Below are positions 1 to 49,558 of a DNA stretch of 64,000 nucleotides, in pieces. The notes below the pieces were generated by a model. That model had not been told where the DNA came from. It saw only the letters and a list, made by a program, of their open reading frames with translations, and made no database searches. Location of the stretch: positions 9,430 through 73,429 of the forward strand of contig DATLWF010000196.1 of the NCBI GenBank assembly GCA_035576605.1, written 5' to 3'. Positions within the stretch are counted from its first letter, which is position 1. Each line of letters begins with the position of its first letter. This stretch comes from Blastocatellia bacterium (GTDB lineage Bacteria; Acidobacteriota; Blastocatellia; UBA7656). The position numbers were made by a program, and so were the translations under genes.

Positions 1-2386
1 CGGTTCCTCCGACAGTCACAGTAGCGCCGTCGACGAAATTCGTTCCCGTGATTGTCACCGATGTCCCGCCGGCGGTAGTCCCAGTATTCGGCGAGACCGA
101 TGTAACGGTGGGTGCGCCACTGCCGCCTCCACCTGATTTCGGCAAAATAGTCGTATCGTTCTTTAGCGCACCGGGCGCCGTGTTCAAGTAGGTCGATGGC
201 GATAGCACTATCTGATCAATAGACAGTCCGTCCTCTCTGACCTGTATTCTAATTGTGTGGGTTCCGCTCCCGGAGAAGTAGATGAGCGGCCCCATGACCC
301 CGACACCCCAACCATTGTCTTGCCACCCCCAACCCTGCAGACCGCATCCCGTGCAATCTTCCAGGTTGATGGCGGAACCTGATGTTGTTCCGATTCTAAA
401 GACAGGTGCTCCGCCGCTGCCATCAAGGCTGTCTGAAAACTGCGCAAATACCGAATCGTTCCCCCAGTAGTCGGCCTGAGCTTTGCCTCTTATCCACAGC
501 CGATAGCCTGTGGATGCGTCCGCCTGAAAGGTCATTTCAAAATAATCTGACGGGTTTGGAAGCGCGTCCGCCAATTTGGGGGCGCCGGCATCTGGATTGG
601 CCAGCCTGAATCCGCCGGCGGCTGACGCATCCGATACGACGTTCCAATTTCCCACTCTAACCGGGGCCTCCGAAGCATACATCACCACGTCGGCCGAAGT
701 CGGCGGAGGTGGAGGCGGAGGAGTTGTGTAGGTGAAGGAATTGGCTAGCGTTCCGTTTTGGCCATCAGTGTTAGTCACAATCACACTAACGGCGCCTGCC
801 GAGTGCGCCGGCGTAACCGCCGTAATTGTAGTGCTGCTGGTCACGTTGATACTGGTCGCCGCCGCGCCGCCAATACTCACGCTTGCGCCTGACAGAAAAT
901 TGGTTCCGGTGATGGTAACAGCCGTTCCACCAGCCGTGCTTCCGGTGTTCGGCGATATAGATGACACAGTAGGCGCAGGGCCGGGCGCCCCCCCTGCCGT
1001 GGTAAAGCTCCAGGTTGGGCCGCTCGCCGTCATGTTGGCCATCGTCTTGCTCACAATACGCCAGTAGTACTTCGTCGCCGCTTGTAGCGATTGCGGCGCA
1101 AACGTTTCCGGGATCGATCCGTTGTCCACCGATCCAATGAACTGATCAGCGGCCAGAAGAGGCGGGTTGGGGTTGGTGCCAAAGTAAATGTCGAATTTTT
1201 GAGCGTATGGTCCGCCTTCCCACGCCAGCGTTACGTTGGTAGCCACGCCAGTAGCATTGTTCGCGGGTGTTTGATAGGAGGGCGGATCGGGCGGAAGAGG
1301 AGTGAATGGTTGCGTCTCAGTCGTTGAATTCCATTTACGCTCGAATTGATTCACAAACCAATTGAAGAACCATGACTTGGTAGTGAAGTAGTTGTTCTCT
1401 GCCTGGCAGTTCGCCGACGGACCGGTCCAGTTTGATGAGCCGAATATTGTGAGCCCCTGCCCATACAGCATCGAAACCTTTTCGTGATTCAACCCCTGAT
1501 GCGCTCGAATCCTTATCTGAACTCCGGCATTGTAGAGTAAATCAACATTATAGGAATCCCACGGCCGGGTTGGATTCCTATATTCGTTTTGCTCGGTGAG
1601 CAGACGGACCGGTATTCCGCGATTCACCGCGGCTATGGTCATGTTGGTAAATCCCAAATTGGTGATGCGATACATAATCACATCGATCTTCCGTGTCTCA
1701 CCATTAAATGCACTGAGGCTGCGATTATAGAAACTCTCCGAACCGTCGGCGCTTGGCGGGAAGTTCAGTTCGGGATCTATCGGATACGTGGGATAGCGGC
1801 GGCTCAAAGCTCCGCTGATATTTGCGTAGTTCCCATAATTGGTTGTATCGGTCCACATATCGTCCATGATGGTCTTGAAACTGTTCAAGACCGACGAAAC
1901 GCTTGTGAAGTAGATTGCTTCATCTATGTAATCCACGTAGGGCTGATTCGGCACGAAGAAGAACGGGCCATAGTTCGCGCCGCTGAATTCGATCTGACCC
2001 TGTCCTACAAACAGCATGAACTTTCGGTGCAGAATACAGTCGGCTACCTTGTACCGCATCGGGATACCGGCAGCTCGAAACTGATCGAGTATCTGCTGAT
2101 TTCCAGCGTAGGTGTCGCTTGCCCTCGGGTCGCACAATATCCGGACCGGAACGCCCGCTTGAAACCGAGCGATTATCTTGTTCGATAGCGATGTGTCCTG
2201 TATGAACCAAAAAGAGACGTCTATACCCACCGTCTCATTGTCAATGAGAGTCCATAAGGGCTGACGGCAGTCCTCAAAGGAGGTGTCGCACAGTCGCTCC
2301 ACCTGAGCAGATGTTTGCCCGGCTGCAAACAGCACTAGTATTGCCGATAAGGGAAGACTAAAGGCGAATCGTTTAATGGACGTCAT
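1..2386 (-). CDS. Secreted multidomain protein, 3'-partial (C-terminus lies beyond the window start): signal peptide, PLD-like (HxK...GSxN x2) region, a conserved ~190-aa cysteine/tryptophan-rich domain shared with CDS 51831..55115, and IPT/TIG-like Ig domains
   Basis: Not in the ORF track because it runs off the window edge. Hand-translating the minus strand from ATG at 2386 (RBS GGAACGAGG upstream) gives MTSIKRFAFSLPLSAILVLFAAGQTSAQ... HRKFMLFVGQG...SGAN and HEKVSMLYGQG...GSSN are HKD-like motifs. The C-terminal stretch ...PNPSDYFEMTF...CTGCGLQGWGWQDNGWGVGVMGPLIYFS...TTILPKS is about 70% identical to part of CDS 51831..55115. Confidence 0.55.
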   Translation of the reverse strand, partial: MTSIKRFAFSLPLSAILVLFAAGQTSAQVERLCDTSFEDCRQPLWTLIDNETVGIDVSFWFIQDTSLSNKIIARFQAGVPVRILCDPRASDTYAGNQQILDQFRAAGIPMRYKVADCILHRKFMLFVGQGQIEFSGANYGPFFFVPNQPYVDYIDEAIYFTSVSSVLNSFKTIMDDMWTDTTNYGNYANISGALSRRYPTYPIDPELNFPPSADGSESFYNRSLSAFNGETRKIDVIMYRITNLGFTNMTIAAVNRGIPVRLLTEQNEYRNPTRPWDSYNVDLLYNAGVQIRIRAHQGLNHEKVSMLYGQGLTIFGSSNWTGPSANCQAENNYFTTKSWFFNWFVNQFERKWNSTTETQPFTPLPPDPPSYQTPANNATGVATNVTLAWEGGPYAQKFDIYFGTNPNPPLLAADQFIGSVDNGSIPETFAPQSLQAATKYYWRIVSKTMANMTASGPTWSFTTAGGAPGPAPTVSSISPNTGSTAGGTAVTITGTNFLSGASVSIGGAAATSINVTSSTTITAVTPAHSAGAVSVIVTNTDGQNGTLANSFTYTTPPPPPPPTSADVVMYASEAPVRVGNWNVVSDASAAGGFRLANPDAGAPKLADALPNPSDYFEMTFQADASTGYRLWIRGKAQADYWGNDSVFAQFSDSLDGSGGAPVFRIGTTSGSAINLEDCTGCGLQGWGWQDNGWGVGVMGPLIYFSGSGTHTIRIQVREDGLSIDQIVLSPSTYLNTAPGALKNDTTILPKSGGGGSGAPTVTSVSPNTGTTAGGTSVTITGTNFVDGATVTVGGT
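130..700. repeat. Protein-coding direct repeat, copy A (about 75% nt identity to 52660..53240)
   Basis: Antisense ORFs 282..470 and 52804..53013 give near-identical peptides (...TPTPQPLSCHPQPC...). Sense translations share ...PNPSDYFEMTF...GCGLQGWGWQDNGWGVGVMGPL...KNDTTILP. Confidence 0.6.
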
Positions 2387-2879: not shown

Positions 2880-3587
2880 CTAAACCGGTTCCAACCACTC
2901 ACGCTGTCTTACTTGTGAACAGTTCTTGTCGGCGACAAACGCCGCTATGTGCCCAGCCAAACCACGGATCCGGTGCAATGACCACCGGCAGCTTTCCTGC
3001 GGACCTGCTTCTGAGTCAATTAATTCTGGCTTTCCGGTGAACGAGACTTCGAACGAGTTCAATGGACGAGAGAGCCCTTCGCCGGTTGCTTTGACGTATG
3101 CCTCTTTGCAGACCCAGTACGTCAGAAACGCCGTACTCTTTTCACTGGGGTTGAGTCGGCGAATAGAAGCAGCCTCCGCAGGAGAGAAAAAGCGCTCGGC
3201 GAGCTGGTCCACTTCAAGATCCTGGCCTTCGCGCTCAACATCTATGCCAACCTCCACATCCGATGCAATTGCATACAGGACCAGCTCTCGTGACCGAGAC
3301 AGGTTGAACGTCAATGCATTCTCATATGGGTTGGCAAGGACAGGTTTCCCATTCGGCGTAGTCGAGAAACGGATCTCGCGCGGCTCAACGTCAAGATATC
3401 GACCAAGGATGGTTCTGAGTAACGCGCGTGACACGACGAAGCGTGCGAAGTGTTCTCGCACGCGAAGCCGTTCAGCCCTCTCGCGTTCATCGTTCGCAAG
3501 CTGGGTCAACAAGCGGGCGAGCATTGCCGGCCGTCCCAAAGCGGCGCTCCAAACGTGAACTTCACCTTGCTTTAACTGTAAATCCAT
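2880..3587 (-). CDS. 4'-phosphopantetheinyl transferase, Sfp/EntD type
   Basis: Motifs GEVHVW, GKPV, FNLSRS (FNxSHS-like), GIDVE and WVCKEAYVKATG. The ORF-track start at 3614 is TTG. ATG at 3587 (MDLQLKQGEVHVW) is preferred. Lies 26 nt downstream of the NRPS stop. Confidence 0.75.
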   Translation of the reverse strand: MDLQLKQGEVHVWSAALGRPAMLARLLTQLANDERERAERLRVREHFARFVVSRALLRTILGRYLDVEPREIRFSTTPNGKPVLANPYENALTFNLSRSRELVLYAIASDVEVGIDVEREGQDLEVDQLAERFFSPAEAASIRRLNPSEKSTAFLTYWVCKEAYVKATGEGLSRPLNSFEVSFTGKPELIDSEAGPQESCRWSLHRIRGLAGHIAAFVADKNCSQVRQREWLEPV

Positions 3588-3640
3588 CCGCGCCCGGCCC
3601 TCGAGGAAAACCAATACCGCGTCGTTGTTCCAGCGTGCGT

Positions 3641-6600
3641 CTAAGGCAGGTCAGTCAATTCGGACCGTGACTCTTCGAGACACCTCTTCAACGTCTCAGC
3701 CAGCTGGCGCACATGATTCGTCACGCACGTAATATGTCCGCCGGGAACCGTTTGAACGTCCACCGTCGTAGCTACTCTGCTCCATCCCGCAGTTGGATCG
3801 CCGTCTTCCAGCGCCAATTCTGAAGGCCACACGACAGTAACTCGGCCGCGATACGGTGCAGGGACGTATCCCTGGATCGCTCTAGAGTAGGCGGCAGTCG
3901 CACGCTTCCGCCCGTCGACTGGAATCGAGGCGTTGATGTCAGATCCCATCGGCGCGCCTTGCGAATTACCGTTTCTTTGAATGGAGGCAAACGCCACGGC
4001 CAGGTTTGCCGCCGCTGTCCAGCTTTTCTTCTTGATGAAAGCGATTCGCTCATCTGTCTGCAGTCGCAAGAATTCTGTAAGCCGGGCTCTGTAGTAATCC
4101 TTTATCTCCTGAACACGGGTAAGTCGCTCCCGGTATGCAAGGAAGCGATCCAGCCGTTGCTCGCTTCCCAGCTTGTCAAGATCGCTCAAGCGATTAACTA
4201 CCTTGTGGAGAAGCTTGAATCGAAGCGCGTTTCTCACAGAAGCGCAAAGAAGGACAAGCATATCGATCTTCTCACCCTGGGACTGCAATAGTCGCGCGAT
4301 CTCGAACGCCACTGCCGCGCCGTTACAATAACCGCCTAACAAGTACGGCCCTCGCGGCTGAAACTCCCGAAGCGCCGGCAGGTGGCTTTCGGCCATCGCC
4401 TCGATTGTCGAAGGAATCGGGCCCCCATCCAGTCCGTGGGGCTGAATTGCATAGAACGGCTGGTCATCTCCGAGTCCGTGCGCGAGATTTTGGCAATAAA
4501 ACCCGCCGCCGTTGAAATCGCCATGCAGGAAGAAAAACGGCCGCTTTGATCCTCCCTTGCCGATCTTAACAATGGCTGAGTGAGTCCGGGCCGTCTCTTG
4601 CTCGAGTATCGTAGCCGCTAGATGCTCGATGGTCGCCTCTTCGAATAGAGTCGCGAGTGGAAGCTGTCGCCCGGTTACTTGCTCGATCCGCCCCATCATT
4701 CGAACCGATAGGAGCGAATGCCCGCCCAGCTCAAAAAAGTCGTCTCGTATGCCGACCGGAGTTACCTTCAAGATTTCTTCCCAGATCTCGACGAGCTGTC
4801 GCTCAAGCGGATCTCGTGATCGAACATACTTATCGTTCGGAATAATCTGCGTTGAATCCGGCGCCGGCAATCTTGTGCGATCCACCTTTCCACTATTTGA
4901 GATCGGCAACTCATTCAGCGCTACGAACAAAGACGGAACCATGTATCCGGGAAGCTTCTTCTTCAAGAAGCTGCGCAATTGATCTCGGAGCTCGCTTTGC
5001 GCGAATGAATCGGCGCTTCCACGCGGCACAACGTAAGCCACAAGTCGTTTTTCACCGGGTTGGTCCTCTCTGGCGATGACCATGGCATCGTGGACGTCCG
5101 GGCTGGAGCACAGCGCTGTCTCAATCTCTCCCAACTCGATACGGAAGCCGTTTACCTTGACTTGATCGTCTATCCGACCAGCGATTTGAATATTGCCGTC
5201 GGGAAGATACAGTGCAAGATCACCTGTCTTGTATAACCGCGCGAAAGGCTCAGCACTGAACGGATCTGGTATGAATTTCTCTGCGGTGAGGTCAGGATGA
5301 TTCAGATATCCGCGGGCAAGGCCGGCTCCCCCGATGTGCAACTCGCCAATTACACCAACAGGAGCTGGTTGATGATGTCGGTCAAGGATATAAACTCGAG
5401 CATTGGGAATGGGTCGCCCCACCGGCGCATCCGAGACTCCAGCAGTTGATGGCTTCGGTTTCGATAAGTCCGCAATCGTAGCAACGATGGTCGCTTCGGT
5501 TGGCCCGTAGGTGTTCAGGAGCCGCACGCCTGAAGGAATGCGCTCGTGCCAGGCGGCCATTCGCTCGGGGAGGGCTCGCTCTCCTCCGATGATGACCAGC
5601 CGTGTCGTTTGAGGCAACGACAATCCTTCAGCAACAAGGCTGGTAGTCAGTTCGTGCCAAAAAGCCGTCGGCAAATCCAGCACAGTTATGCCCCAGTCTG
5701 TGCACTGCCGCAAGAATCCCGAGATAGACTTCAGCATAGCGTCAGTACGCAAGACAAGGGTTGCGCCTCGCGCGAGGGAGGAATAAATCTCTTCGGCGCT
5801 AGTGTCGAAGCTGCTGGAGGCGAATTGCAATACTCGATCGCCGGGGGTTATGCCGAATTCGTCGCTCGCGAAATCTATGTAGTTAGTTAAAGAGCGATGC
5901 TCTATCAGGACCCCTTTCGGTGTTCCCGTAGAGCCGGAGGTGTAGATCAGGTATGCGAGATTCTCGGGGGTCACACGGCGGGGCGGATTCTCGGTCGAAT
6001 GCCGACCGATCACCTCCCAGTCTGAATCAAGACAGATTACGCGCGCATCGGTTGCGGGTAGTTCCCTGGCGAGTTGCTCCAGGGTCAACAGCACCGGGGC
6101 GCTCGAATCTGCAAGCATCGCCGCCAATCGTTCTGTCGGATAAGCACTATCCAGCGGCACGTAGGCGCCACCGGCCTTCAAAATACCCAGCAAGCCCACG
6201 ATCATCTCAGTCGAACGACCTACCAACAGGCCAACCAGCTTCTCGGGCCCTACGCCGAGCGATGTCAGATAATGCGCCAGTTGATTAGCCCGCCTGTTTA
6301 GTTCGCCATAGGTCAATTGTGCGTTCGCGCAGATGACCGCAACCGCGTCCGGCGCCTTCGCCGCTTGCTCCTCAAACATCCGGTCAACCGAAGTCCGCGG
6401 TGAGTTGATTGAGTTATTGCTGTTCCATTCGACGACGATCTGATGTCGTTCGGCGGCCGTAAGCATCGGCAATGTCGAGACTGGTTCGTGGACGTAGGAC
6501 GACATGCCTTCAAGCATTGTCATCAAGTGTCCGAGCATTCGTCGGACCATTGCTTGGTCAAAACGTTGTCGGTCATATTCGATCTTCAGCAATAAGGTCT

Positions 6601-7825
6601 CGCCCGACCAGCCCGAGAGCGAGAGCGGGTAACTGGTCTCTTCGAAAAGCTGCAAGTCGCGAATCTCCCAGTTGGTCCAATGCGATTGAATCAGCGACTG
6701 AAGGTCGTAATTCTCGAACATCAGAATGCTGTCAAAGAGCGGCCTTCTGCTAATCACTTCAGACCATTCTTGAATTTTGGGCAGCGGAGTGTTTTCGTAT
6801 TCCCGCAGATTCAGATGTTGCGCCCGGAGTTCCTTGAGCCAGGAGCTAAGGGGTTGGTCTTCCGGAACGGTCACACGAATGGGCAGCGTGTTTATGAACA
6901 GACCAACAGATTCAGCGCCGTCGGATGAGCCCCGACACGCCCGTATCCCTCCAAACACAACATCCGCCTCGCCGCTATAGCGGCTGAGGAGCAGCGCCCA
7001 CGCAGCTTCCACCAGGGTGTAAAGCGTGACGCCGTTTTCCAAGGCAAGCGTTTTCAGCGTTGAAGTCAGAGCCGCCGTCAACCGAATCGCCTGCTCGTCG
7101 TGACCGGTCTGATCTCCCGAAATCGCACCGGGGTTCCGGGCCTCCGGAAGCGGAGTGGGACTGGTAAACCCGCTCAATGTGCTGCGCCAGAACCGCTCGG
7201 CTCTACTCATATCGATCTGTTGGAGACTCTCGATATGCTCACGAAACGGACGCGGCGGCTCTAAGCAGAGAGACGCGTCGTCACAAAGCGCCTCATAAAA
7301 CGCGTGAGTCTGACGCAGAACCTCGACAAGCGATCGGCCATCGAGCAACAGGTGATGAAACGTCAATACGAAATGAAAATCGCGCTCGCCGATATGAAAC
7401 AAGCCAATCCTCATCAACGGCGCCCGCGTTAGATCAAACCCCCTTGTACGATCGTTCTGAAGATAATCCTCGAGCCGCGCTTGCTGATCGACAGACCGCA
7501 CGGAACGCCAGTCCTCGTGGTGCAGTTTCAGGTGAGCAAGCGCGTGAACTTCCTGGTGAGGCTCATCGAGACCATCCCAGCGAAAGCTCGTTCTTAGAAT
7601 CGGATGCCGGTCCACAACCTGCCGCCATGCCCTCGCAAAGGCTTCTATGTCGAGATTGGCGTGAATAGTAAAAAGGAATTGCTCGATGTCAACGCCCGGC
7701 TCCCGAGCGTAAAGCGTATGAAAGAGCATCCCCTGTTGAAGCGGCGAGAGTGCATATGAGTCTTCAATTGCGCGGTGCCCCGGCATTCCGATTGGTTTTT
7801 CCGGTTCAACGGCGATGACGGTCAT
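3641..7825 (-). CDS. Single-module nonribosomal peptide synthetase, C-A-T-TE
   Basis: C domain HHLLLDGRS. A-domain core motifs LAYLIYTSGSTGTPKGV, YKTGDLA, GRIDDQVKVNGFRIELGEIE, NSGKVDR. Carrier motif LGGHSLL. C-terminal alpha/beta-hydrolase TE with GGYCNG in place of GxSxG (Cys codon TGT at 4325-4327, minus strand) and a distal GGH. Confidence 0.9.
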   Translation of the reverse strand: MTVIAVEPEKPIGMPGHRAIEDSYALSPLQQGMLFHTLYAREPGVDIEQFLFTIHANLDIEAFARAWRQVVDRHPILRTSFRWDGLDEPHQEVHALAHLKLHHEDWRSVRSVDQQARLEDYLQNDRTRGFDLTRAPLMRIGLFHIGERDFHFVLTFHHLLLDGRSLVEVLRQTHAFYEALCDDASLCLEPPRPFREHIESLQQIDMSRAERFWRSTLSGFTSPTPLPEARNPGAISGDQTGHDEQAIRLTAALTSTLKTLALENGVTLYTLVEAAWALLLSRYSGEADVVFGGIRACRGSSDGAESVGLFINTLPIRVTVPEDQPLSSWLKELRAQHLNLREYENTPLPKIQEWSEVISRRPLFDSILMFENYDLQSLIQSHWTNWEIRDLQLFEETSYPLSLSGWSGETLLLKIEYDRQRFDQAMVRRMLGHLMTMLEGMSSYVHEPVSTLPMLTAAERHQIVVEWNSNNSINSPRTSVDRMFEEQAAKAPDAVAVICANAQLTYGELNRRANQLAHYLTSLGVGPEKLVGLLVGRSTEMIVGLLGILKAGGAYVPLDSAYPTERLAAMLADSSAPVLLTLEQLARELPATDARVICLDSDWEVIGRHSTENPPRRVTPENLAYLIYTSGSTGTPKGVLIEHRSLTNYIDFASDEFGITPGDRVLQFASSSFDTSAEEIYSSLARGATLVLRTDAMLKSISGFLRQCTDWGITVLDLPTAFWHELTTSLVAEGLSLPQTTRLVIIGGERALPERMAAWHERIPSGVRLLNTYGPTEATIVATIADLSKPKPSTAGVSDAPVGRPIPNARVYILDRHHQPAPVGVIGELHIGGAGLARGYLNHPDLTAEKFIPDPFSAEPFARLYKTGDLALYLPDGNIQIAGRIDDQVKVNGFRIELGEIETALCSSPDVHDAMVIAREDQPGEKRLVAYVVPRGSADSFAQSELRDQLRSFLKKKLPGYMVPSLFVALNELPISNSGKVDRTRLPAPDSTQIIPNDKYVRSRDPLERQLVEIWEEILKVTPVGIRDDFFELGGHSLLSVRMMGRIEQVTGRQLPLATLFEEATIEHLAATILEQETARTHSAIVKIGKGGSKRPFFFLHGDFNGGGFYCQNLAHGLGDDQPFYAIQPHGLDGGPIPSTIEAMAESHLPALREFQPRGPYLLGGYCNGAAVAFEIARLLQSQGEKIDMLVLLCASVRNALRFKLLHKVVNRLSDLDKLGSEQRLDRFLAYRERLTRVQEIKDYYRARLTEFLRLQTDERIAFIKKKSWTAAANLAVAFASIQRNGNSQGAPMGSDINASIPVDGRKRATAAYSRAIQGYVPAPYRGRVTVVWPSELALEDGDPTAGWSRVATTVDVQTVPGGHITCVTNHVRQLAETLKRCLEESRSELTDLP

Positions 7826-7832
7826 GGCGTTA

Positions 7833-8996
7833 TCAAGTCAGTCGCGCGGGAGCTACTTCACTGGGTGGATCCAGCTCGATCACGTCGTACAGCTCGCGGA
7901 CCGCGCGCGCGGTCGCCATGCCCGGTTCATAGAAGAGCTCACTGGCCACCGCCCGCCGCGAAGCCGACTGGGAGTACGAATCGCCAAAGCATCTTTCGAC
8001 CGCGGCAATTGTTTCGCCAACATCTCGGACGGTTATCGATGCTTCGCGCAACAAATCTACATATTCAGGGTTGATGTCCGTTCTCGCGATGAGTTCCGGA
8101 ATGTCGATTCGAACAACCGGGCGATCAAGCAAAAGGTATTCGAACCCGACCGAACTGTGATCGGTGATCAATACGTCGGCCGCGGCGAGATAAGGACAGG
8201 CGTCGCTGCCATCAGCCAGCCATCCGCCACCGCGCCGAAGGATCGGTTCGAGGCGCGCCGCCCAGTCGATGCCGCCGGAATGTTTGTATTGCAGATCGCG
8301 GGACCGATCGTGCAGCTTGACGATCACCGCATAACCCGCGGCCACAAGCTTCTGCACCAGAGCTTCTCCCATCACGTTGAGCGATGAGTAAGGAGACCAT
8401 GTTGGCGCATAGAGAACCGTGCGCCTCGCAGGGTCGATGCCAAGCTCATCGAGCACGTCATCTCGACTAAGCGATCCATCGACCAGACAGTCAAGCTTTG
8501 GATAGCCGACCAGTCGCGCCGCCGGGCTATCGGCGTCAATGGCGCCCACACGGATGTAGTTTTCCATCCGTCGACGATTGATGAAAAACAGGCGGTCCCA
8601 GTCGCGCATCGAGCGGTCCGGGGTGTCATAAACGCGGCTGTACTTGCCAGCCACGCCGTGAAACATTTGAATGCGCCGCGTGCCCCTGGGGAGTGTCACC
8701 CATAGCATGTCGGCGACCAGGTACGCGCTGAATTTCATCAGCGCGGCGCGCGCCGGGCTTACGAGGTTGACATTGCCTCCGATCTCGCCATAAATCGTCT
8801 TCGCCGCGGACGGCTGTTCGCTCGCCGTGAAGAAGAACGTCACTCGCGAGTCTTGCATAGCGCGATAAATTGGAACAATGACCGCGGAGTTCATCGCCGT
8901 TCGCGCGTTGACCAGAACGCAGCGACCCGGGTGGATTCGCCGCTGCCATCGCGTATCCGTTTGCTGCACCCATTTCGTGATGTTGCTCAGAGGCAT
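7833..8996 (-). CDS. CDP-alcohol:polymer polyol-phosphate transferase, TagF/TagB/TarL family
   Basis: VLYAPTWSPY and VLITDHSSVGFEYLLLDRP match the TagF catalytic-domain signatures (LYAPTWR ... ITDYSS). ATG at 8996, 7 nt upstream of the NRPS start. Confidence 0.7.
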   Translation of the reverse strand: MPLSNITKWVQQTDTRWQRRIHPGRCVLVNARTAMNSAVIVPIYRAMQDSRVTFFFTASEQPSAAKTIYGEIGGNVNLVSPARAALMKFSAYLVADMLWVTLPRGTRRIQMFHGVAGKYSRVYDTPDRSMRDWDRLFFINRRRMENYIRVGAIDADSPAARLVGYPKLDCLVDGSLSRDDVLDELGIDPARRTVLYAPTWSPYSSLNVMGEALVQKLVAAGYAVIVKLHDRSRDLQYKHSGGIDWAARLEPILRRGGGWLADGSDACPYLAAADVLITDHSSVGFEYLLLDRPVVRIDIPELIARTDINPEYVDLLREASITVRDVGETIAAVERCFGDSYSQSASRRAVASELFYEPGMATARAVRELYDVIELDPPSEVAPARLT

Positions 8997-9806: not shown

Positions 9807-11384
9807 TTAAGCGGCCGCGGCCGCACTCGCTCGTTTCAAGAGCTCTCTTACCTTCGCGAAATACCACTGTCTCTCTTCGCGATCGATTGCCAGCATTAGA
9901 AATACCGCCAGGTAGATTAATCCAGCGGTTATTGCCTGAAGAGCGATCGCAGGGAGATTCACGCTGATGACGTTTCGGGTGATCGCGAGAAACGACGCCA
10001 TAACGACTAACGGCCAGAGCGGAGGGAAGATTGCGGTCTTCAGGGCCTCACGCGTACTCAACTGCACTCTCCGGCAAGCCGCCGGGAACAGCACGAAGAT
10101 AGATACGGAACCCACCGCGATCAGAGTGCCAAGCGCTACGCCAATCAACCCAAGATGGCGAACCAGAACAATGCTCATGGCCAGGTTTGCAAGGGCGATT
10201 AACAGGTTCGATGTCGCCAGCAGCCTGTGTTGACCGGCGCCTTTCAGCAATGTCGTCGCTGTTGAATTCCCCACGCGGATTGCAACCGCAATAGTCAGAA
10301 TGTGAATGATGGGCACGCTGCCTGCAAAGTCAGGTCCCACCCACGCCAATACCAGAGGCTCGGCAAGCAGGCTCAAACCGGTCGCAATGGGAACAACCAT
10401 CGCCAGCGATATGCGAGTGCCCTGTATGAACAATTGTCGCAGCCGGTCAGCTTGCCCAACGGTGGCGGTATCCACAATGATCGGAAACATGGCTCCGTTC
10501 AATTGGCCGGTGACGATCTGGACTGCCTCAATCAACCGCTGTGCGACTGCCCAAATCGCAATCGAGACGGTGCCCATAAAGGCGCCTATCACTATCGCAT
10601 CTGTTGAGTAGTTAACCTTGTTTGCAAGGTCAATCAATAATATGAAGGCGCTAAACCCGGTGACCTCGCGCAGTCGCGCCAGCCGCACGTTAGACAGGCG
10701 AATTCGCAAACCGGGATAGGCCCGGTAGGCGTTTAACGCATAGCCGATATGACTCAGCGCACGAATCGTTGTAGTTGCAGCGACCAGTTCCACGAGGCCG
10801 TATCCGCCCAGGAGCACCGCTACATTGACACACGCCACCACGATGCTGGTCGAGATGGATACGGAGCCGTTAAGATAGTGGCGCTGAAACCCGTTTACGA
10901 TTCCACCGAACACGCTGACGGGAAAGCCAAGCGCGACGTAGGCGCTGATTATTAGCAGAACCTGTCGGCCGATATCGGCTTGTGCCGGGGTTATGTTGAA
11001 AAACTTTTGCAGATTGAAAGCCAAGAAGGCGCCGATTGCAAAGGCAATCAGTCCTATGACGCAGAATCCCAGAAAGAGACTGCTCACAATTTGATTGAGG
11101 CCTTCACTGTCACGGCGAGCGCGGTACTCCGATGCGAATTTCACCTGAGCGACCCCATACCCGAGGTCTAGCATGGAAAAGTACGCTGTTACGGAGGCGA
11201 CGAGAACCCATAGCCCGTAGGTAGACGGTCCCAGGCGTCCCATATTGAAAGGGAGCATCACCGCGCCGATCAGGACGTCAACCCCAAGGGCAACATAGTC
11301 CATCGAGATGTTTCGGGCGAAGATGTCGAGCTGATTGAACTCGCGCCCCCATACCGGATCGCCTTCGGCTCTGGCCTTGCTCAC
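9807..11384 (-). CDS. Polysaccharide biosynthesis membrane protein, Wzx/PST (MOP superfamily) flippase-like
   Basis: 525 aa, about 12 hydrophobic segments throughout. GTG start at 11384 overlaps the stop of the upstream GT2 (GTGA); an alternative ATG lies 27 codons in. Confidence 0.65.
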   Translation of the reverse strand: MSKARAEGDPVWGREFNQLDIFARNISMDYVALGVDVLIGAVMLPFNMGRLGPSTYGLWVLVASVTAYFSMLDLGYGVAQVKFASEYRARRDSEGLNQIVSSLFLGFCVIGLIAFAIGAFLAFNLQKFFNITPAQADIGRQVLLIISAYVALGFPVSVFGGIVNGFQRHYLNGSVSISTSIVVACVNVAVLLGGYGLVELVAATTTIRALSHIGYALNAYRAYPGLRIRLSNVRLARLREVTGFSAFILLIDLANKVNYSTDAIVIGAFMGTVSIAIWAVAQRLIEAVQIVTGQLNGAMFPIIVDTATVGQADRLRQLFIQGTRISLAMVVPIATGLSLLAEPLVLAWVGPDFAGSVPIIHILTIAVAIRVGNSTATTLLKGAGQHRLLATSNLLIALANLAMSIVLVRHLGLIGVALGTLIAVGSVSIFVLFPAACRRVQLSTREALKTAIFPPLWPLVVMASFLAITRNVISVNLPAIALQAITAGLIYLAVFLMLAIDREERQWYFAKVRELLKRASAAAAA

Positions 11385-12554: not shown

Positions 12555-13742
12555 TTAGGTAAACTGCGTGGCAACGGCCGCCCGAGCTAGTGGATAGCGC
12601 GGGCTGGCGGTTGTTTCGGGCTCTCGTCTGATATTATCGCGGCTCCCCGCAGTCTCACTGATACTCATTTCCAGAGTCCTGCTGAACGCATGGAGAAATG
12701 GTATGTATTGACCGGCTCCGAGCTCTACATCGCGGATGACAGCGTCAAACAGCTGGCGATAGTGGGTCACCAGCGAATTGGAGATTCCAATCCTCCGAGC
12801 GATGGTCGTTTGTGACGGAGATGAGAGATCGAAGTAACAATACCAGGCGACTCGCGCCAGCCGGCTGTATCGACGCGGCTTGTGTCTAACCACTTCTCGC
12901 ATCTTATCCAACAGTTCCACGGCAATCGCCTCGGCCTGCTGGTTAGTTTCGTTTTCGAGAAGTCGCTGCTCAGGCGTTGGTCTCTGGTCAGGAAAATCCA
13001 CCTTGAGTGGTTCCGGGTCCGAGACGGCGTCAGGCGTTACCGCTGCATCAATGGAAACAAACCGCGAATCTTCCACCGGCAGCTTGGACAACGCCAGAGA
13101 TCTTACAATTCGAACATCCAGCGGCGAGTCCACCGCCCTGAATATCTCGACTAAGAGATCAGTCAGATCCCGATTCGAAATAATTATGTGCGAGCTGCCG
13201 CCCCTTCCCGCTCGCCTCCGGTCACGTCCTCTATAAGCAACGTCCTTTAGCAAATCCTCCATGTTTTGATGGGCCCTTGTCGGCTTGTCGTCAGGCCATT
13301 CTCTCAACCCGAAAACCCTCGTGCTTAACTTGCCCTCGGAGTGGTTGGCTCCAAGTGTGCGCCGATATCTGCGAAACTCAGCGCTGGTTTGGACCAGATT
13401 GCTGATGCGGCGCGCCATCCGGTACGCTTCCGGCTGTCGCTCGCGCAACAGCAGCGAAACCAGGTTGGGAACTTCAATATGGTAAAGTTCATGCTCAATA
13501 TTCGCATTCGAATAGCCGGCGTCTACGTAATGCCGCCAGCGATCCTTCCGGTGGAGCTTTAGGAATAGATCTTGAGTCACATCCGCGTTCAGATCCTGTA
13601 GCCGTGCGCGCGCGATTCTGTCTGAGTTGAACAGAGTCCTGATTGACGAATGTCTCGATACTAACTTGAACAGTTTGTCCCACAATGCTGCAGCGTCATT
13701 GTCGGTAAGAATTTCAATCCAGCCCCTTGCTTGCTCGTTCAT
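12555..13742 (-). CDS. Hypothetical regulator: N-terminal sigma-70 region-2-like segment and C-terminal HTH separated by a long insert
   Basis: N-terminus WIEILTDNDAAALWDKLFKLV...DVTQDLFLKL resembles ECF sigma region 2. C-terminus TTIARRIGISNSLVTHYRQ is HTH-like. About 200 aa of basic/low-complexity sequence lie between. Confidence 0.35.
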   Translation of the reverse strand: MNEQARGWIEILTDNDAAALWDKLFKLVSRHSSIRTLFNSDRIARARLQDLNADVTQDLFLKLHRKDRWRHYVDAGYSNANIEHELYHIEVPNLVSLLLRERQPEAYRMARRISNLVQTSAEFRRYRRTLGANHSEGKLSTRVFGLREWPDDKPTRAHQNMEDLLKDVAYRGRDRRRAGRGGSSHIIISNRDLTDLLVEIFRAVDSPLDVRIVRSLALSKLPVEDSRFVSIDAAVTPDAVSDPEPLKVDFPDQRPTPEQRLLENETNQQAEAIAVELLDKMREVVRHKPRRYSRLARVAWYCYFDLSSPSQTTIARRIGISNSLVTHYRQLFDAVIRDVELGAGQYIPFLHAFSRTLEMSISETAGSRDNIRREPETTASPRYPLARAAVATQFT

Positions 13743-14109: not shown

Positions 14110-14979
14110 TTATGTAATGGAACCGGCCACCTGACCGTAGACAGGAAGGTCGGGGCGCGAGAGATCACTCGGCGTGATGTCCAGAGCTTCGATCACGTCG
14201 GCTATTATGTCGCGGAAAATCGTCGCCTGGCCCGCAGCGTAACCATACAACAGCGCGTTATCGCAGATGTTATTGATCACCCGCGGTATTCCGGCGGACG
14301 CCAGGCCGATCAATTCGATTGAGGACGGATCAAAGATATTGACCCGCCCAGCTCCGGCAATCCTCAGTCTGAAGCGAATGTAGTTATTGATCTCGTACAA
14401 ATATAGCGGCCTGATTGAACAGCGCAGCGATACCCGCTGCTTAAGCTGTCGCAGTCCGGGCTGATTCAGAATCTCCCGAAGCTCGGGCTGGCCGCAAAGA
14501 ACTATTTGCAAGAGCTTTTCGCTGTTTGTCTCAAAATTCGCCAGTAGCCGCACCTCTTCCAGCACGGCCGGCGAGAGCCCGTGCGCCTCATCTATGATCA
14601 GAACAGTGCGCAAACCGCGTGAGTGTCGTTGCGCCAGACAGGCGCCTATTGCATTCAAGAGGTCTGCCTTCGAAGCGGTTGAGCCGAGACCGAGATTGAG
14701 ACCGCCTGAGAGGAGTTGGAAAAACTCTGCGACCGTCACGAACGGATTGAATAAGTACACTGATAGAATGTCTGGACCGAATTGCTGCAGAACCGACCGC
14801 AAGGTGGTCGTCTTACCTGTGCCGACTTCGCCCGTGACGACCGCGAGCCCTTTGCTCTGTGATATACAATATTTCAGATTTGACACTACCTCCAGATGGC
14901 TGTCGGTTTTGTAGATGAACTTTGGATTTGGGGTTAATCCAAACGGTATCTCTTTGAGCCCATAAAACTCCGTGTACAT
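14110..14979 (-). CDS. ExeA/GspA-like AAA ATPase (PEP-CTERM locus secretion-ATPase type)
   Basis: MYTEFYGLKEIPFGLTPNPKFIY N-terminus, Walker A VTGEVGTGKTT, Walker B VLIIDEAH. ATG 14979 directly follows the upstream kinase-like gene's TAG (14980-14982). Confidence 0.8.
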   Translation of the reverse strand: MYTEFYGLKEIPFGLTPNPKFIYKTDSHLEVVSNLKYCISQSKGLAVVTGEVGTGKTTTLRSVLQQFGPDILSVYLFNPFVTVAEFFQLLSGGLNLGLGSTASKADLLNAIGACLAQRHSRGLRTVLIIDEAHGLSPAVLEEVRLLANFETNSEKLLQIVLCGQPELREILNQPGLRQLKQRVSLRCSIRPLYLYEINNYIRFRLRIAGAGRVNIFDPSSIELIGLASAGIPRVINNICDNALLYGYAAGQATIFRDIIADVIEALDITPSDLSRPDLPVYGQVAGSIT

Positions 14980-16653
14980 CTATCGTTCCCCCAGTCGAAA
15001 ATATCTACTGTCGGTATCCCCATACCGGCGCAAATACCGTGTAGGCCGCCGCCATTTGGCCTTGCCCTGGCGAAGGCGCTGCGACGTAGATGACGGTCTC
15101 GCGACAGGTTGCGGACGAACCGCGGCTCTTGCCTGAGTCGTGGCGCCCTGAGCGTTAGCCGGCTTGGCCTCCTGGTGTGTTTCGGCAGGCGGCTGATGGT
15201 CGCCGGCAGGCGGCGGACTGGTGACTACCGGCTTTTCTCCCGTTCCCTTGGAAGAGGGCAGGGCCGCCGTGCGATCGATGCCGGCATCGCTGCCCTCGGC
15301 CGTCGGTTCCGAAACTGTCCGATTTGGGAACCTGGAACGGTCAGCGCGTGCGAGTATTAATATCCCGATTAATGCCGCAATCGCCATCGCTAGGACCAGC
15401 ATCACCGGTCTCCATTGACTGCGTAATGCGAACGTCGAGCTTAGTTCATGGCTTAGCAGCACATCGCGTGGTGTTTCGAGGCGCTCATTCGAAGGCGGAT
15501 CTGGTTCTCTTTCCTCATCTACGGTCTCGGTCCCCAGATCCAGGGTATGAACCTGATCAACCGGCGACTCGATCACCCTGATCGACGGCGGCTCCCACGG
15601 TTCACGGCTCGCGCCATCCAAGAGGCTCTCCAGTTCGATAGGACTTTGGTCGTCTTCGTATCCAATGTCCAACGGTTGCGACTCACAACCATCGCTCCAG
15701 CCCGCCATGGTAGGAGGTTGACTTGTCGAGCGGTCCAGCGCCTCACGGAAGGAAGTCACATCTTGAAATCGTTTGTTGGGGTCTTTTTCAAGCATGCGCG
15801 TGATAATCGCCGACAACGAAAACGGGATATCCGAGCAATAAAGATGTGGTGCCCGGGGCGAATGGGTCACATGCCTTTGCCTGACAGTGTCAGGGTCTTC
15901 CGAATCTACCGGCAGCCGATCGGTGAGCATCTGGTAGAAGACGACTCCCAGGGAATACAGATCGCTGCGCGCATCGAGCGCTTCTCCACGTGCCTGTTCG
16001 GGACTGATATAGTGCAAGGGACAGGCGCTGGCGCGCTCTTTGTGCGCCCAGGCAAGATCGCCACGGGCCTCCACCCCGAAGTCGGATAGCAAGGCTGCGC
16101 CATCCGTGCCAATTAGAACGTTTTCGGGATGAACGCTGAGGTGGAGAACCCCGAGCGAATGGGCATAGTCGAGCGCATCGGCGATCTGTAGAACGATTCC
16201 TAGTGCGAGCCCAAGGTCAAGCCAGCCCCGGCGGTCCAGCAACATTTTTAATGTCTCGACGTCGGGCCGACGCTCCAAAATTGAGAAATGTGTGCCGTTG
16301 ATCTCCTGAGGTCCGCTTGATCTGACAATATTGCGGTGCGATAGCCTTGCGGCCGCTGATGCCTCCAGACGAAACAACTCTAGTCGCCTTAGATCGTCAC
16401 CGTGCGCATGCAGGACCTTTAAGGCTACCGGTCTATCATCGCGCCGATCGCGTCCATGGTAGACGGCAATACCGCCCCGATCGCTCACCAAACTGAGACA
16501 ATCGAATCTACTGGACAAAACCTCGGTAGTATCGCACTCGGTAGTATCGCAGACGCTTCCACCATTGGTAGGCGTTTTTGAGACAGGTGCCAGGGCGCTA
16601 GCCAAGTTCGGATCGTTGGTGCCGGCTGCTTTTTGGAGTTCAAACCCGCTCAT
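14980..16653 (-). CDS. Membrane-anchored Hanks-type Ser/Thr protein kinase-like protein, predicted pseudokinase
   Basis: Kinase subdomains present: ALKVL (beta3 Lys), LSDFG, SPEQ, DLYSLGVVFYQMLT. The catalytic loop reads GVLHLSVHPENVLI instead of HRDLKPEN; Ser codon AGC at 16135-16137 replaces the catalytic Asp. One TM segment PVMLVLAMAIAALIGILILA, then a Pro/Ala-rich C-terminal tail. Confidence 0.75.
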   Translation of the reverse strand: MSGFELQKAAGTNDPNLASALAPVSKTPTNGGSVCDTTECDTTEVLSSRFDCLSLVSDRGGIAVYHGRDRRDDRPVALKVLHAHGDDLRRLELFRLEASAAARLSHRNIVRSSGPQEINGTHFSILERRPDVETLKMLLDRRGWLDLGLALGIVLQIADALDYAHSLGVLHLSVHPENVLIGTDGAALLSDFGVEARGDLAWAHKERASACPLHYISPEQARGEALDARSDLYSLGVVFYQMLTDRLPVDSEDPDTVRQRHVTHSPRAPHLYCSDIPFSLSAIITRMLEKDPNKRFQDVTSFREALDRSTSQPPTMAGWSDGCESQPLDIGYEDDQSPIELESLLDGASREPWEPPSIRVIESPVDQVHTLDLGTETVDEEREPDPPSNERLETPRDVLLSHELSSTFALRSQWRPVMLVLAMAIAALIGILILARADRSRFPNRTVSEPTAEGSDAGIDRTAALPSSKGTGEKPVVTSPPPAGDHQPPAETHQEAKPANAQGATTQARAAVRPQPVARPSSTSQRLRQGKAKWRRPTRYLRRYGDTDSRYFRLGER

Positions 16654-17012: not shown

Positions 17013-19019
17013 CTAGGGTAAGCCTTGAAGAGCCCGCATCGACGCCCTCTCAACCACTTCAAGATCCGCGCCGATATCGCGGCCATTCGTCCCCGCGTTC
17101 TTGTAGGGACTGGTGTTTGCGAGCCGATAGTTTCGACTCCCTTTATCGACGAAGCCTACGTCATCGAGCGTGGCTGGATAGTAGTTCTTCCTGGGATATT
17201 TGGAGCTTTGGCCGCCAACTATCACGTTTCTTTTTAACGATGATGCAGGAAAGTATTTATCAATCGACAAAACTCCGGCGCTCGAACCGTCTCCGATGAT
17301 CCCATAGTCATTGTGAGGAGCAATATTATTGGTGAATACAAATCCTTGATTCGGCACTCCGTAGGCAGTGATGATATTGCCCGTTTGAAGGATCGTATTG
17401 TGATCCACCCTCACATCAACGGTTTCTGTAATTTGCAGGAACCTGCCATTGCCTCCCCACTGGCTGCCCCCGACGTCGTCGAAGACATTGCCGGTGATCT
17501 CGACTCCCGTTACCTGTTCGCTAGGGTGGAGATTATCTCGTCCGAGAATATTGATCCCGGCAGCGGTGTGACGAAGGATGTTGTTGGTAAAGCTGACACC
17601 TTCGACTACCGACCATGGGGCGGCGCCATCCTGATTGCGAACCGTAAACAAGACGCCGAATCCGCTTTGAGCGTCCACCCAGTTATTCTCAAATACATTC
17701 CCGTCAATGCGGACTCGACGCGCATTCTTTAGCTCGAACAAATTCTTAACGGACCATCGTGTGCCTGAGTCGGGCGGAGCCGAATCCTGGCGCGCTGATG
17801 ATGAATCTCCAACATCATTAAATGAAGAAGCGCTGGTGGAATAGTAGACCCAACTCCTGGTCGGCGAACTCGGCGGATCGCTTGTTCTGTAAACGCGAAA
17901 CTCGGTTGCGAAGTCACCTTGCGACCAGGCCAGGTTAGACGCGGTCTGAGCTGGCGTGAGCGTTACCGATGTTTCGTCAGAACCGATAGAGTTGGCTATC
18001 GCAGAGTAACCCGCTCGGCCGCGGGCGCTTATTCGGTAGTAATATGTGCTTCCAGCCACAAGAGCGCCGGCGCTGTCACTTCCCGTGGCGACAACTCCCG
18101 TCGGTTTGGCGAAGATCCCTTCCTTCCACTTAAGTGGCTTAGCGCAGTGATTATTGCGAAACTCGATATCCGCCGGCACAAGGTACGGGATCTTAGGATC
18201 GGAGCCCCCGAAAAGAACGTTCTCTCCGGCAGCTTCGAGATAGTTGTTGATGATATTGAAAGGACCGGGCCCGTTCCACCCCGCAATAGCCTGAGTGTCG
18301 AAACCCAGACCGTGACAATCGGAAATGTAGGAGTTGACAATATCGGTTCTCGCGCTGTTGAGGGCTATGCCGCGCGATACGTCCGACGTCGGGTTCCCGT
18401 GAATGTAGCAGCGGTCAATAACCAGGTCGTGCGGCAACAACGTCGAGTCCGTTTCGGTACCTTCACCGAACCTGATGATTCCATAGTTAAGCATCACGTC
18501 GAGACCGATCGTGAACTCTATACCCTCGAAGCGATAGTGGTGGGCGCCGGACAGGGTCATTAAGACAGGTTGAGAATTAGGGCTCTCCAGCGTAGCCATC
18601 GCCGTCGCATCAGCAGGAGTCACCCGCACGCCTTCCGGTGGCAGCGTCTCGTCGAGAGCCGACGAGCGAATCGTGATCCAGTCCGACCCTGCGCCGGCTT
18701 TTGTCTTCTCGGGCAAAAAGAAATTACCGCGCAGGAGAGCGCCCGCTTGCAACGTAATGACATCCCCGGGATTGGCCAGGATGAGAGACGCTTGAAAGTC
18801 TTCGCTTGTCGCAACATCGTATTTTCGCAGGGACTCGCGTCGCAATGCCGGCTGCGATAATCGGCCTCCTGTACGAGCGAGCGCCGTAGAATAAGGCAGC
18901 GGTTCGAGAACGAAAACAGCTAATGTGACCGCCGCCAGTATGATTGATTTGCCGCGTTTGAGATATCGCCGGCGAACGGCTCTCCCAGGTAACACAAATG
19001 TCCACATTGAAACACCCAA
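17013..19019 (-). CDS. Right-handed parallel beta-helix repeat protein (paralog 1), signal-anchored
   Basis: IDRCYIHGNPTSDVSRGIALNS, AIAGWNGPGPFNIINNYLEAAGENVLFGG and repeated N-x-x-H/N beta-helix rungs. About 55-60% identity to CDS 31351..33132 and to the N-terminal 500 aa of CDS 51831..55115. The track start at 19019 is TTG; alternative ATG at 19007. Confidence 0.7.
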   Translation of the reverse strand: MGVSMWTFVLPGRAVRRRYLKRGKSIILAAVTLAVFVLEPLPYSTALARTGGRLSQPALRRESLRKYDVATSEDFQASLILANPGDVITLQAGALLRGNFFLPEKTKAGAGSDWITIRSSALDETLPPEGVRVTPADATAMATLESPNSQPVLMTLSGAHHYRFEGIEFTIGLDVMLNYGIIRFGEGTETDSTLLPHDLVIDRCYIHGNPTSDVSRGIALNSARTDIVNSYISDCHGLGFDTQAIAGWNGPGPFNIINNYLEAAGENVLFGGSDPKIPYLVPADIEFRNNHCAKPLKWKEGIFAKPTGVVATGSDSAGALVAGSTYYYRISARGRAGYSAIANSIGSDETSVTLTPAQTASNLAWSQGDFATEFRVYRTSDPPSSPTRSWVYYSTSASSFNDVGDSSSARQDSAPPDSGTRWSVKNLFELKNARRVRIDGNVFENNWVDAQSGFGVLFTVRNQDGAAPWSVVEGVSFTNNILRHTAAGINILGRDNLHPSEQVTGVEITGNVFDDVGGSQWGGNGRFLQITETVDVRVDHNTILQTGNIITAYGVPNQGFVFTNNIAPHNDYGIIGDGSSAGVLSIDKYFPASSLKRNVIVGGQSSKYPRKNYYPATLDDVGFVDKGSRNYRLANTSPYKNAGTNGRDIGADLEVVERASMRALQGLP

Positions 19020-19044: not shown

Positions 19045-20244
19045 CTAGCTCGCTGCTACGGCAACTTCGTCTCGGAACTTTTCTTCCACTCCGGAGTGCA
19101 TGATCGAACGCAGCCAGTAATCTCTGTACAAACCGGGATCTCCACCATGCCCTTCGACTGCCGCCATAACCATGTTGAACGCCTCTCGGGCGGTCGCGAA
19201 ACGGATGCTGCATTGATCATTTAGTTCCGCCATTTCAAGAAGCTCTCCAAGGAAGCGACGTATCGGCTCGCCGAGAAGTGTTTCTTGATCCGATGGAAAA
19301 AACGCATGGCAGTAGAGCTTGATGAACACCCATTCGGGTCTTCCTTTTACGCCTATATCAGCTCCGCACCAGCGGTCGAACCGTTCAACATTCGGCATGT
19401 AATTCGACGCCAGAACGCCACCATCAACCCGAGGGATGGGTAGCCCACAAATGCGACGCCGCCAATCAAAGACAAGTGGTCCGGTAAATAATACCGGCAA
19501 GATCGGTTTTTCGCCAATACGCAAGGTTTTGCCACAGGAGTGTGGACTTCTTTCATTTAGCGGGCGACCGCATTGGTAGATGGCGTTGATGTGACCTACC
19601 TGGGATTCGTCCGGCCAGGACGGAAGCGTGAAGTCAGCATAACAACCCGTCTCTGCTAAGATCTTCATCTCTGAATCCACGCCGCAAAATCTCCCCCCGG
19701 CCGAGTTCGCCAATGCCAGATTGCCGTGCACGAATGCATACATTGGCGAGGTATCATTGTATCTGCGGGACAGCAATCTGTGCTCTTCCGCAAGGACGTC
19801 TCGAAGATCCTGAAGCGTCTTCCTGAGATTCTCCTCGTTATCCGGCTTTTCTACGCCATGATGCAGATGGATCTCAACGTCGCCGAAGTCATCCATTTGC
19901 AACTCCGCCAACGTATCCAGAAAGCCCGAGTGATACTGTTCGATCGGATAAAAATAAGTGTACCGAAATGACTTTCCGTCGCAGTCGCGAAACGCGTTAC
20001 CAAGCGAGCGAGCCCGTTTACACCAGTTCTCGACTCGAGATGCCACCGTCTTCCAGTCCAGCGTCAGAGCTCTCTCGTTCCATCCCGGTTCGAAGTGATT
20101 GGCTACTACAAAGATGAAGTGTTTCGGACCGGTTTTTTCAGTAATCCGACGCACGACTTCCCGAAGACGCCACATTGGATAGCGTGTAAGCCAGGGCAGC
20201 GACCACCTCAGCTTCAACATCAGTCCCGGGCGATCTGATCTCAT
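19045..20244 (-). CDS. Hypothetical protein (conserved-looking, unassigned)
   Basis: 399-aa ORF with ATG at 20244 and RBS GAAGGA. High coding GC bias. No recognised motif. Confidence 0.4.
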   Translation of the reverse strand: MRSDRPGLMLKLRWSLPWLTRYPMWRLREVVRRITEKTGPKHFIFVVANHFEPGWNERALTLDWKTVASRVENWCKRARSLGNAFRDCDGKSFRYTYFYPIEQYHSGFLDTLAELQMDDFGDVEIHLHHGVEKPDNEENLRKTLQDLRDVLAEEHRLLSRRYNDTSPMYAFVHGNLALANSAGGRFCGVDSEMKILAETGCYADFTLPSWPDESQVGHINAIYQCGRPLNERSPHSCGKTLRIGEKPILPVLFTGPLVFDWRRRICGLPIPRVDGGVLASNYMPNVERFDRWCGADIGVKGRPEWVFIKLYCHAFFPSDQETLLGEPIRRFLGELLEMAELNDQCSIRFATAREAFNMVMAAVEGHGGDPGLYRDYWLRSIMHSGVEEKFRDEVAVAAS

Positions 20245-28777: not shown

Positions 28778-28794
28778 TCTCCTTTCAATGGCGT

Positions 28795-31329: not shown

Positions 31330-31350
31330 CAACAGATTCCTCAGCGAGTC

Positions 31351-49497: not shown

Positions 49498-49558
49498 ATG
49501 TTCCTCTATCTTTTTCGTCAGTACATCGCTTTTAGAGACTCAATCCGCATGAAACTCC

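Follow-up and report, generated by a model that had tools for sequence, protein, structure and literature searches.

Recognition as a family of carbohydrate-binding modules (CBM) in the CAZy classification requires demonstrated carbohydrate binding. Domain III of the Cry toxins from Bacillus thuringiensis is a lectin-like binding domain. In the enzymes of glycoside hydrolase family 115 (GH115), the C-terminal domain of one protomer lines the cleft in which the other binds xylan (PMC3879575). The domain described here resembles these modules in its fold, and was found in two genes, A and B, of a stretch of 64,000 nucleotides from an uncultured soil bacterium of the Blastocatellia (phylum Acidobacteriota; contig DATLWF010000196.1, positions 9,430 to 73,429), hereafter called the window. 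It is a real, widespread, and uncharacterized domain of a well-known fold and role class. We consider, with a probability of about 0.6, that it is a non-catalytic accessory module of about 185 residues, of the CBM6/CBM35/GH115-C type, which probably binds a glycan and tethers secreted enzymes to a polymer.

Two window copies and their family

A local protein alignment first tied residues ~565-753 of the gene A product to residues 630-817 of the gene B product. Copy A, delimited by alignment and tblastn as residues 565-753, lies at 128..694 and scores 319 bits with the hidden Markov model (HMM) of the family, and copy B lies at 52665..53228 and scores 311 bits; a six-frame scan of the window with the family HMM retrieved these two copies and no others. 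They are 70.4% identical over 189 amino acids (tblastn E 2e-88; blastp E 5e-99), which bears out the initial annotation of this DNA, where a conserved domain shared by two secreted proteins at about 70% amino acid identity had been described. Its further statements that the copies are in direct orientation (both on the minus strand, ~52 kb apart), that an IPT/TIG domain comes after each (Pfam; the two are 57% identical), and that the hosts are a PLD-like protein for copy A and a beta-helix/PKD protein for copy B (Pfam and AlphaFold2, AF2) also agree with our results. By contrast, the nucleotide identity of about 75% given there is too high. A codon-based alignment yields 66.3%, with 71%, 86%, and 41% at the first, second, and third codon positions, and blastn aligns just 443 nucleotides at 69.3%. 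Synonymous differences are saturated (pS 0.78, with dN 0.23), and a seed-based repeat finder (seed 11, minimum 40 nucleotides), for which the two copies are too dissimilar in DNA, misses the pair and picks up three paralogous beta-helix genes instead.

The domain belongs to a large family. A word-indexed search returned 1241 matching proteins, and clustering at 50% identity gave 1714 clusters at E<=1e-3 and 678 at E<=1e-30. At least 511 stretches were confirmed in species-representative genomes, the best 80 of which all come from Acidobacteriota metagenome-assembled genomes (MAGs) that carry the label Blastocatellia or Pyrinomonadaceae; a single MAG often has several loci. Hereafter, architectures are counted over the 147 best representatives, Pfam partner domains over 107 representatives, and gene neighborhoods over 79 related loci. 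Two copies per protein are the rule (115 of 147), three are found in 7 proteins, and successive copies are separated by a linker with a median of 12 residues. The last copy ends within 12 residues of the C-terminus in 99 of the 147, and the first directly follows the N-terminus in 32.

An alignment of 270 copies has a mean pairwise identity of 47%. Positions conserved in at least 95% of them are W16, P47, Y63, W66, R68, A71, N78-D79-S80, Q84, W121-G122-W123, F139, R148, Q150, R152-E153-D154-G155, D159-Q160, P173-G174, and D179 (numbering of the trimmed alignment; add 1 for the 189-residue numbering of copy A). The Trp-rich loop carries a pair of cysteines in a CxxC arrangement, with both residues present in 172 copies, neither in 85, and one only in 13. 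This co-occurrence fits a disulfide bond and suggests an extracytoplasmic location.

The window is part of a longer contig (k141_244214 of ENA ERZ27256713, 80,401 bp), in which window position 1 is record position 9469, so that the sequence runs 9.5 kb past the left edge of the window. When this left flank was examined, gene A was found to be adjoined by gene N (1370 residues, identical to representative P0124), whose product consists of a 535-residue N-terminal region, the domain, TIG, Phosphoesterase PF04185, TIG, and the domain again. A convergent gene encoding PKD and Exo_endo_phos domains comes after it. Counting these two, N1 and N2, three genes of the source contig share four copies, with pairwise identities of 70-78%; A, B, and N1 lie inside their proteins and not at an end. 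The picture of two repeats bracketing the locus, as drawn initially, is thus correct in that one copy lies near each end, but they are not a unique pair, and the picture is in part created by the position of the window edge.

Fold and proposed role

No Pfam or NCBIfam model reaches its threshold with the isolated domain. GH115_C (PF17829) is the sole Pfam family touched: against a gathering score of 24.1 bits, copy A reaches 12 bits (E 0.19), copy B gives no match, and a gene N copy reaches 22.9 bits. Among the 107 representatives, 31 match GH115_C at E<=1e-5, and in the cases inspected the match falls inside the domain and is colinear with it. Since these more distant representatives do match, the window copies are, by their profile relationships, best described as sub-threshold relatives of GH115_C. 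The initial description of the domain as unassigned therefore needs to be qualified: no dedicated Pfam or NCBIfam profile exists, but a relative does.

The structure prediction that had been proposed alongside the profile search places the domain in a CBM6/35/GH115_C-like fold. The AF2 model of copy A, built from 50 sequences, is an 11-strand beta-sandwich of the jelly-roll type with a mean predicted local distance difference test (pLDDT) of 90.7 and a predicted template modeling score (pTM) of 0.89, and it can be superposed on solved CBM6/35 modules. The top Foldseek match in the PDB is the CBM6 module 2cdp (2cdp_B; E 4e-6, TM 0.78 on the target, rmsd 3.4), followed by CBM35, CBM6-bearing xylanases, GH115 C-terminal domains, and domain III of Cry toxins. 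Foldseek gives 54 matches in the PDB at E<=1e-3; most of those listed belong to chains with CBM6/35 modules or to GH115 C-terminal domains.

From this fold class, the terminal and tandem placement, the conserved cluster of aromatic and polar residues, and the position of the GH115 domain at a xylan cleft, we infer a binding-module role. The module would be exported within secreted multidomain enzymes, which at this locus are a PLD-type phosphodiesterase, a PLC/AcpA-type phosphoesterase, and a glycanase- or lyase-like beta-helix protein. It would bind a polymeric glycan through the Trp-rich loop and the polar cluster (NDS, WGW, REDG, and DQ) and so tether, or direct, the enzymes that carry it to the polymer, be it the exopolysaccharide (EPS) or envelope of the cell itself or a substrate in its environment. 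Tandem terminal copies may add avidity. The initial annotation had suggested a mobile carbohydrate-binding or surface-anchoring module; its reuse in different secreted proteins and its CBM-type fold make this a reasonable reading, the reuse and the fold being shown by the data and the binding being deduced from them. If the module does bind a defined polymer, it would found a new CBM-type family and annotate more than 1000 "hypothetical" regions in proteins of soil Acidobacteriota; it could then explain how these oligotrophs, which grow slowly, retain secreted phosphatases, phosphodiesterases, and glycan-active enzymes close to the cell.

A bolder version can be formulated. The putative site hardly varies among copies on unrelated enzymes, which points to a single shared ligand, and the phosphoesterase partners, together with a TagF-like gene in the neighboring polysaccharide cluster, make a phosphate-containing glycan possible. 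The family would then be a new CBM family, expanded in Blastocatellia, that recognizes one conserved and possibly phosphate-containing (teichoic-acid-like) exopolysaccharide or envelope glycan, and would be the general device of this lineage for holding secreted phosphoesterases and EPS-processing beta-helix enzymes on its own matrix. We regard this extended version as doubtful.

Several results weigh against a glycan-binding module of CBM type. The CBM_6, CBM_35, and related Pfam models give no match at E<=10 with either copy, and sequence profile searches of the PDB with a close (A1) and a diverse (A6) alignment reach a best E of 0.4-0.7, with no solved relative. In the AF2 model, confidence is lowest in the conserved Trp-rich loop (pLDDT 60-75). 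Glycoside hydrolase catalytic families are absent from the 25 most frequent partner families shown in either scan, and the right-handed beta-helix (Beta_helix, 6/107) is the recurring polysaccharide-active fold among the partners. Further partners include SBBP (19/107), DUF7948 (15/107), Exo_endo_phos (14/107), PLDc_2 (12/107), Metallophos (6/107), Pur_ac_phosph_N (5/107), and Phosphoesterase (2/107), besides PKD, Big, and TIG spacers, which are also frequent. Exo_endo_phos, PLDc_2, Metallophos, and Phosphoesterase alone account for at least 34 matches. Given that phosphoesterase partners are frequent and glycoside hydrolases are not, the ligand may not be a plain carbohydrate. Finally, the C-terminal beta-sandwich of GH115 enzymes makes inter-chain contacts that lead to dimerization (PMC3879575), a role other than binding.

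These points feed two alternatives, both of which we hold to be unlikely. In one, the ligand would be no neutral glycan but a phosphorylated, non-classical one, for which a teichoic-acid-like glycerol-phosphate polymer, extracellular DNA, phospholipid, and phosphate-bearing mineral or organic matter are candidates, and the module would hold secreted phosphoesterases on their substrate for phosphorus scavenging. Besides the frequent phosphoesterase partners, including Pur_ac_phosph_N, this reading can draw on the three adjacent secreted phosphoesterase genes of the source contig (PLD, PF04185, and Exo_endo_phos), the first two of which hold three of the four copies, and on the 20 of 79 related loci in which the PLD gene is linked to a TagF-like glycerophosphotransferase. 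The fold neighbors, however, are carbohydrate binders, the module is also attached to beta-helix glycanase-like enzymes and to SBBP/DUF7948 proteins, and the partner counts are raw numbers, which do not show an enrichment over secreted Blastocatellia proteins in general. The other alternative, which we rate no higher, is a structural, spacer, or oligomerization domain with no ligand of its own, comparable to the dimerizing GH115 domain or to Ig-like spacers, and the setting of the module among TIG and PKD domains would suit it. Conservation of WGW, NDS, REDG, and DQ at 95% or more across unrelated enzymes would nevertheless be unusual for a spacer, and terminal tandem placement is typical of binding modules. 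Less probable still is a sorting or secretion signal for a lineage-specific export or anchoring system. The many copies that end close to the C-terminus are what such a signal would show, but copies A, B, and N1 are internal, a copy directly follows the N-terminus in 32 of the 147 representatives, tandem copies are common, and 185 residues with a CBM-like fold are unlike known sorting tags. A CBM-type module that probably binds a glycan thus remains our preferred explanation.

Divergence between the copies

The initial annotation also viewed the two copies as direct DNA repeats, between which homologous recombination could delete or excise the ~52-kb cluster. Their direct orientation at both ends of a minus-strand cluster is what such a scenario demands, and one related locus, L080, has a single gene with beta-helix, domain, TIG, and a gene-A-type C-terminus, as an exchange of this kind would create. 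The DNA of the copies tells against it. RecA-type recombination requires perfectly identical tracts of about 25 nucleotides or more, and it drops log-linearly as sequences diverge. No perfect or near-perfect tract of at least ~25 nucleotides was found between A and B: their longest exact match is 14 nucleotides, the best 50-nucleotide stretch is 80% identical, and the best 100-nucleotide stretch is 76% identical. When copy A was compared with 300 random 564-nucleotide segments of the window, the longest match averaged 9 nucleotides with a maximum of 14, a length reached by 2 of the 300. Because of the 14-nucleotide longest run and of this divergence, with its saturated synonymous sites and its low identity at third codon positions, A and B are not viable substrates for recombination.

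Comparison with other genomes points the same way. The contig carries four copies, not two, and all four have orthologues in other genomes (A 79% with L004, B 85% with L077, N1 82% with L004, and N2 85% with L018) that are closer to them than any paralogue on this contig. In a second species, on CAVSKO010000003.1 (3.2 Mb), an A-like copy (L029) and a beta-helix gene with the domain (L038) also lie ~40 kb apart on the same strand and in direct orientation within a cluster of this type, although gene order differs there and the L038 beta-helix may correspond to an internal paralogue and not to gene B. The recombination idea is thus largely refuted, and excision by this route is scarcely credible. 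Copies A and B are better understood as ancient paralogues; purifying selection at the protein level has kept them alike, and they have no repeat function at the DNA level. They have no bearing on genome instability of the EPS locus, the proposed route not being viable.

Two further candidates were considered and rejected. L080 is not a B x A deletion junction: with only ~60% identity to either gene and none of the flanking genes of the window, it is an old shuffled paralogue, which documents how domains have been shuffled in the course of evolution. Gene conversion between the copies was also dismissed, as there is no high-identity patch.

Host genes, polysaccharide cluster, and known systems

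The part of gene A inside the window occupies 1..2386 on the minus strand, the open reading frame (ORF) beginning at 2386 and being cut by the window start. The complete gene (L003 15440-19126 on the source contig) encodes 1228 residues, in the order signal peptide, two PLDc_2 stretches, TIG, the domain, three TIG, and a C-terminal domain of 188 residues. Its N-terminus, MTSIKRFAFSLPLSAILVLFAAGQTSAQ, is signal-peptide-like. PLDc_2 scores 86-88 bits against a cutoff of 27 in two stretches, in keeping with the two halves of the PLD superfamily; the best-scoring one lies at 1331..1696 (-) (residues 231-352), the second lies upstream, and the HxK motifs HRK and HEK can be read in the sequence. The TIG domain before copy A maps to 728..973 (-), and the one after it (residues 759-840 of full gene A) has only its start in the window, at 1..112 (-). 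The 188-residue C-terminal domain (L003 18560-19123, left of the window) has no Pfam match even at E<=1; tblastn finds it in 49 of the 79 related loci, one of them L080, where it sits on a beta-helix protein. Likewise, the N-terminal 535 residues of gene N (L003 19281-20885) have no Pfam match and are kept in 7 related loci.

Gene B (51831..55115, minus strand, 1094 residues) encodes a signal-peptide-like N-terminus, a right-handed beta-helix, PKD, the domain, TIG, PKD, and a 105-residue Ig-like C-terminus, and an identical protein is found on two ENA contigs. The N-terminal 535 residues have no Pfam match, the Beta_helix profile included, but AF2 models this region (53511..55115, -) as a right-handed beta-helix (pLDDT 92.2), which Foldseek matches to GH136 lacto-N-biosidase, PL9 and PL6 lyases, and phage tailspikes. 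At least 7988 proteins are homologous to it, many with PF13229. The first PKD domain lies at 53262..53489 (-) (residues 543-618), the TIG domain after copy B at 52410..52652 (-) (residues 822-902), and the second PKD domain, a PKD_4 match, at 52152..52400 (-) (residues 906-988). Two paralogues of gene B in the cluster, at 17013..19019 (-) and 31351..33132 (-), reach 24.3 and 21.2 bits with Beta_helix against a cutoff of 25.9. The three beta-helix genes are 60-81% identical in patches at the nucleotide level (repeat families D1-D6), and only gene B carries the PKD/domain/TIG tail. As their fold resembles those of polysaccharide lyases, glycosidases, and tailspikes, the three proteins may be EPS-processing enzymes.

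The interval between A and B is a Wzx/Wzy-type polysaccharide cluster. It encodes Wzz, a Wzc-like ATPase, a WbaP-like Bac_transf protein, Wza, Wzy, and two Wzx, together with GT2 and GT4 glycosyltransferases and a UDP-glucose dehydrogenase. AsnB-like amidotransferases, an acyltransferase, a deacetylase, a formyltransferase, and a heparinase II/III are encoded as well. The cluster also encodes a TagF-like glycerophosphotransferase with a nucleotidyltransferase, a one-module nonribosomal peptide synthetase (NRPS, C-A-T-TE), and a phosphopantetheinyl transferase (PPTase). At each domain-bearing end, synteny with the EPS genes of other genomes is seen: the order TagF-NRPS-PPTase-A-N is found in L004, L029, L020, and L045 (the PPTase being matched only in L004), and B-Wzz-Wzc-WbaP-Wza in L077, L048, and L054. 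Among the 79 related loci, 53 have an orthologue of the PLD gene, 20 have TagF, and 13 have heparinase II/III. Three domain copies are present in 23 of these loci, and in those inspected (e.g. L005-L008; L005 11839-13029) a convergent gene with two tandem copies at its end lies ~4 kb downstream of the PLD-type one, and the two genes look like a conserved pair in Pyrinomonadaceae.

Other features of the window can be noted. At 2880..8996 (-), the NRPS (1394 residues), with its own PPTase, adjoins the TagF-like CDP-glycerol glycerophosphotransferase and the nucleotidyltransferase, and this group might aminoacylate a glycerol-phosphate-bearing polymer. A single ORF of 845 residues at 28795..31332 (-) fuses a GT2 glycosyltransferase to a Wzx-type flippase domain; the second Wzx is separate (9807..11384), and there are two AsnB-like amidotransferases. 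A Ser/Thr protein kinase and an AAA_22 ATPase (14110..16653, -) lie within the cluster besides the Wzz/Wzc-like pair at 48631..51133. Four ORFs of 206-522 residues have no Pfam match at E<=1, three in the cluster (12555..13742, 19045..20244, and 27383..28951) and one in its right flank (61137..61757), all on the minus strand. Finally, three tandem units of 120 nucleotides at 63556..63915 (69-71% identity), in the TPR region of a TPR and CHAT protein (61758..63911), are ordinary TPR repeats.

Among described systems, domain III of the Cry toxins shares the jelly-roll (E ~4e-5 with 1w99, 4moa, and 4arx), but the resemblance is at the level of the fold, toxin context and other toxin domains being absent. 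GH115_C is related by profile as well. Its members 6nps, 4c90, 4zmh, and 7pxq are Foldseek matches (TMq ~0.53-0.55), and the profile matches of the representatives are colinear over the C-terminal strands. In contrast to GH115_C, in neither gene A nor gene B does the domain follow a catalytic TIM barrel and helical bundle of the GH115 type, and the families shown for the 107 representatives include no GH115 catalytic one. Its partners are instead phosphoesterases, beta-helix enzymes, and beta-propeller proteins, it occurs in tandem and at either terminus, and it has the distinctive conserved loop WGWQDNGWG. Literature searches returned nothing on the WGWQDNG motif, nor on CBM and phosphatase combinations in Blastocatellia. 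From CBM6 and CBM35 the domain differs by being ~50 residues longer, with extra loops (TMq ~0.5), and by sharing just 9-16% sequence identity in structural alignments. It nevertheless matches both in structure (2cdp for CBM6; 2wz8, 2w1w, and 2vzp for CBM35) and follows the same role pattern, that of terminal and often tandem accessory modules of secreted enzymes. The domain is a divergent, lineage-expanded branch of the CBM6/35/GH115_C-type jelly-roll.

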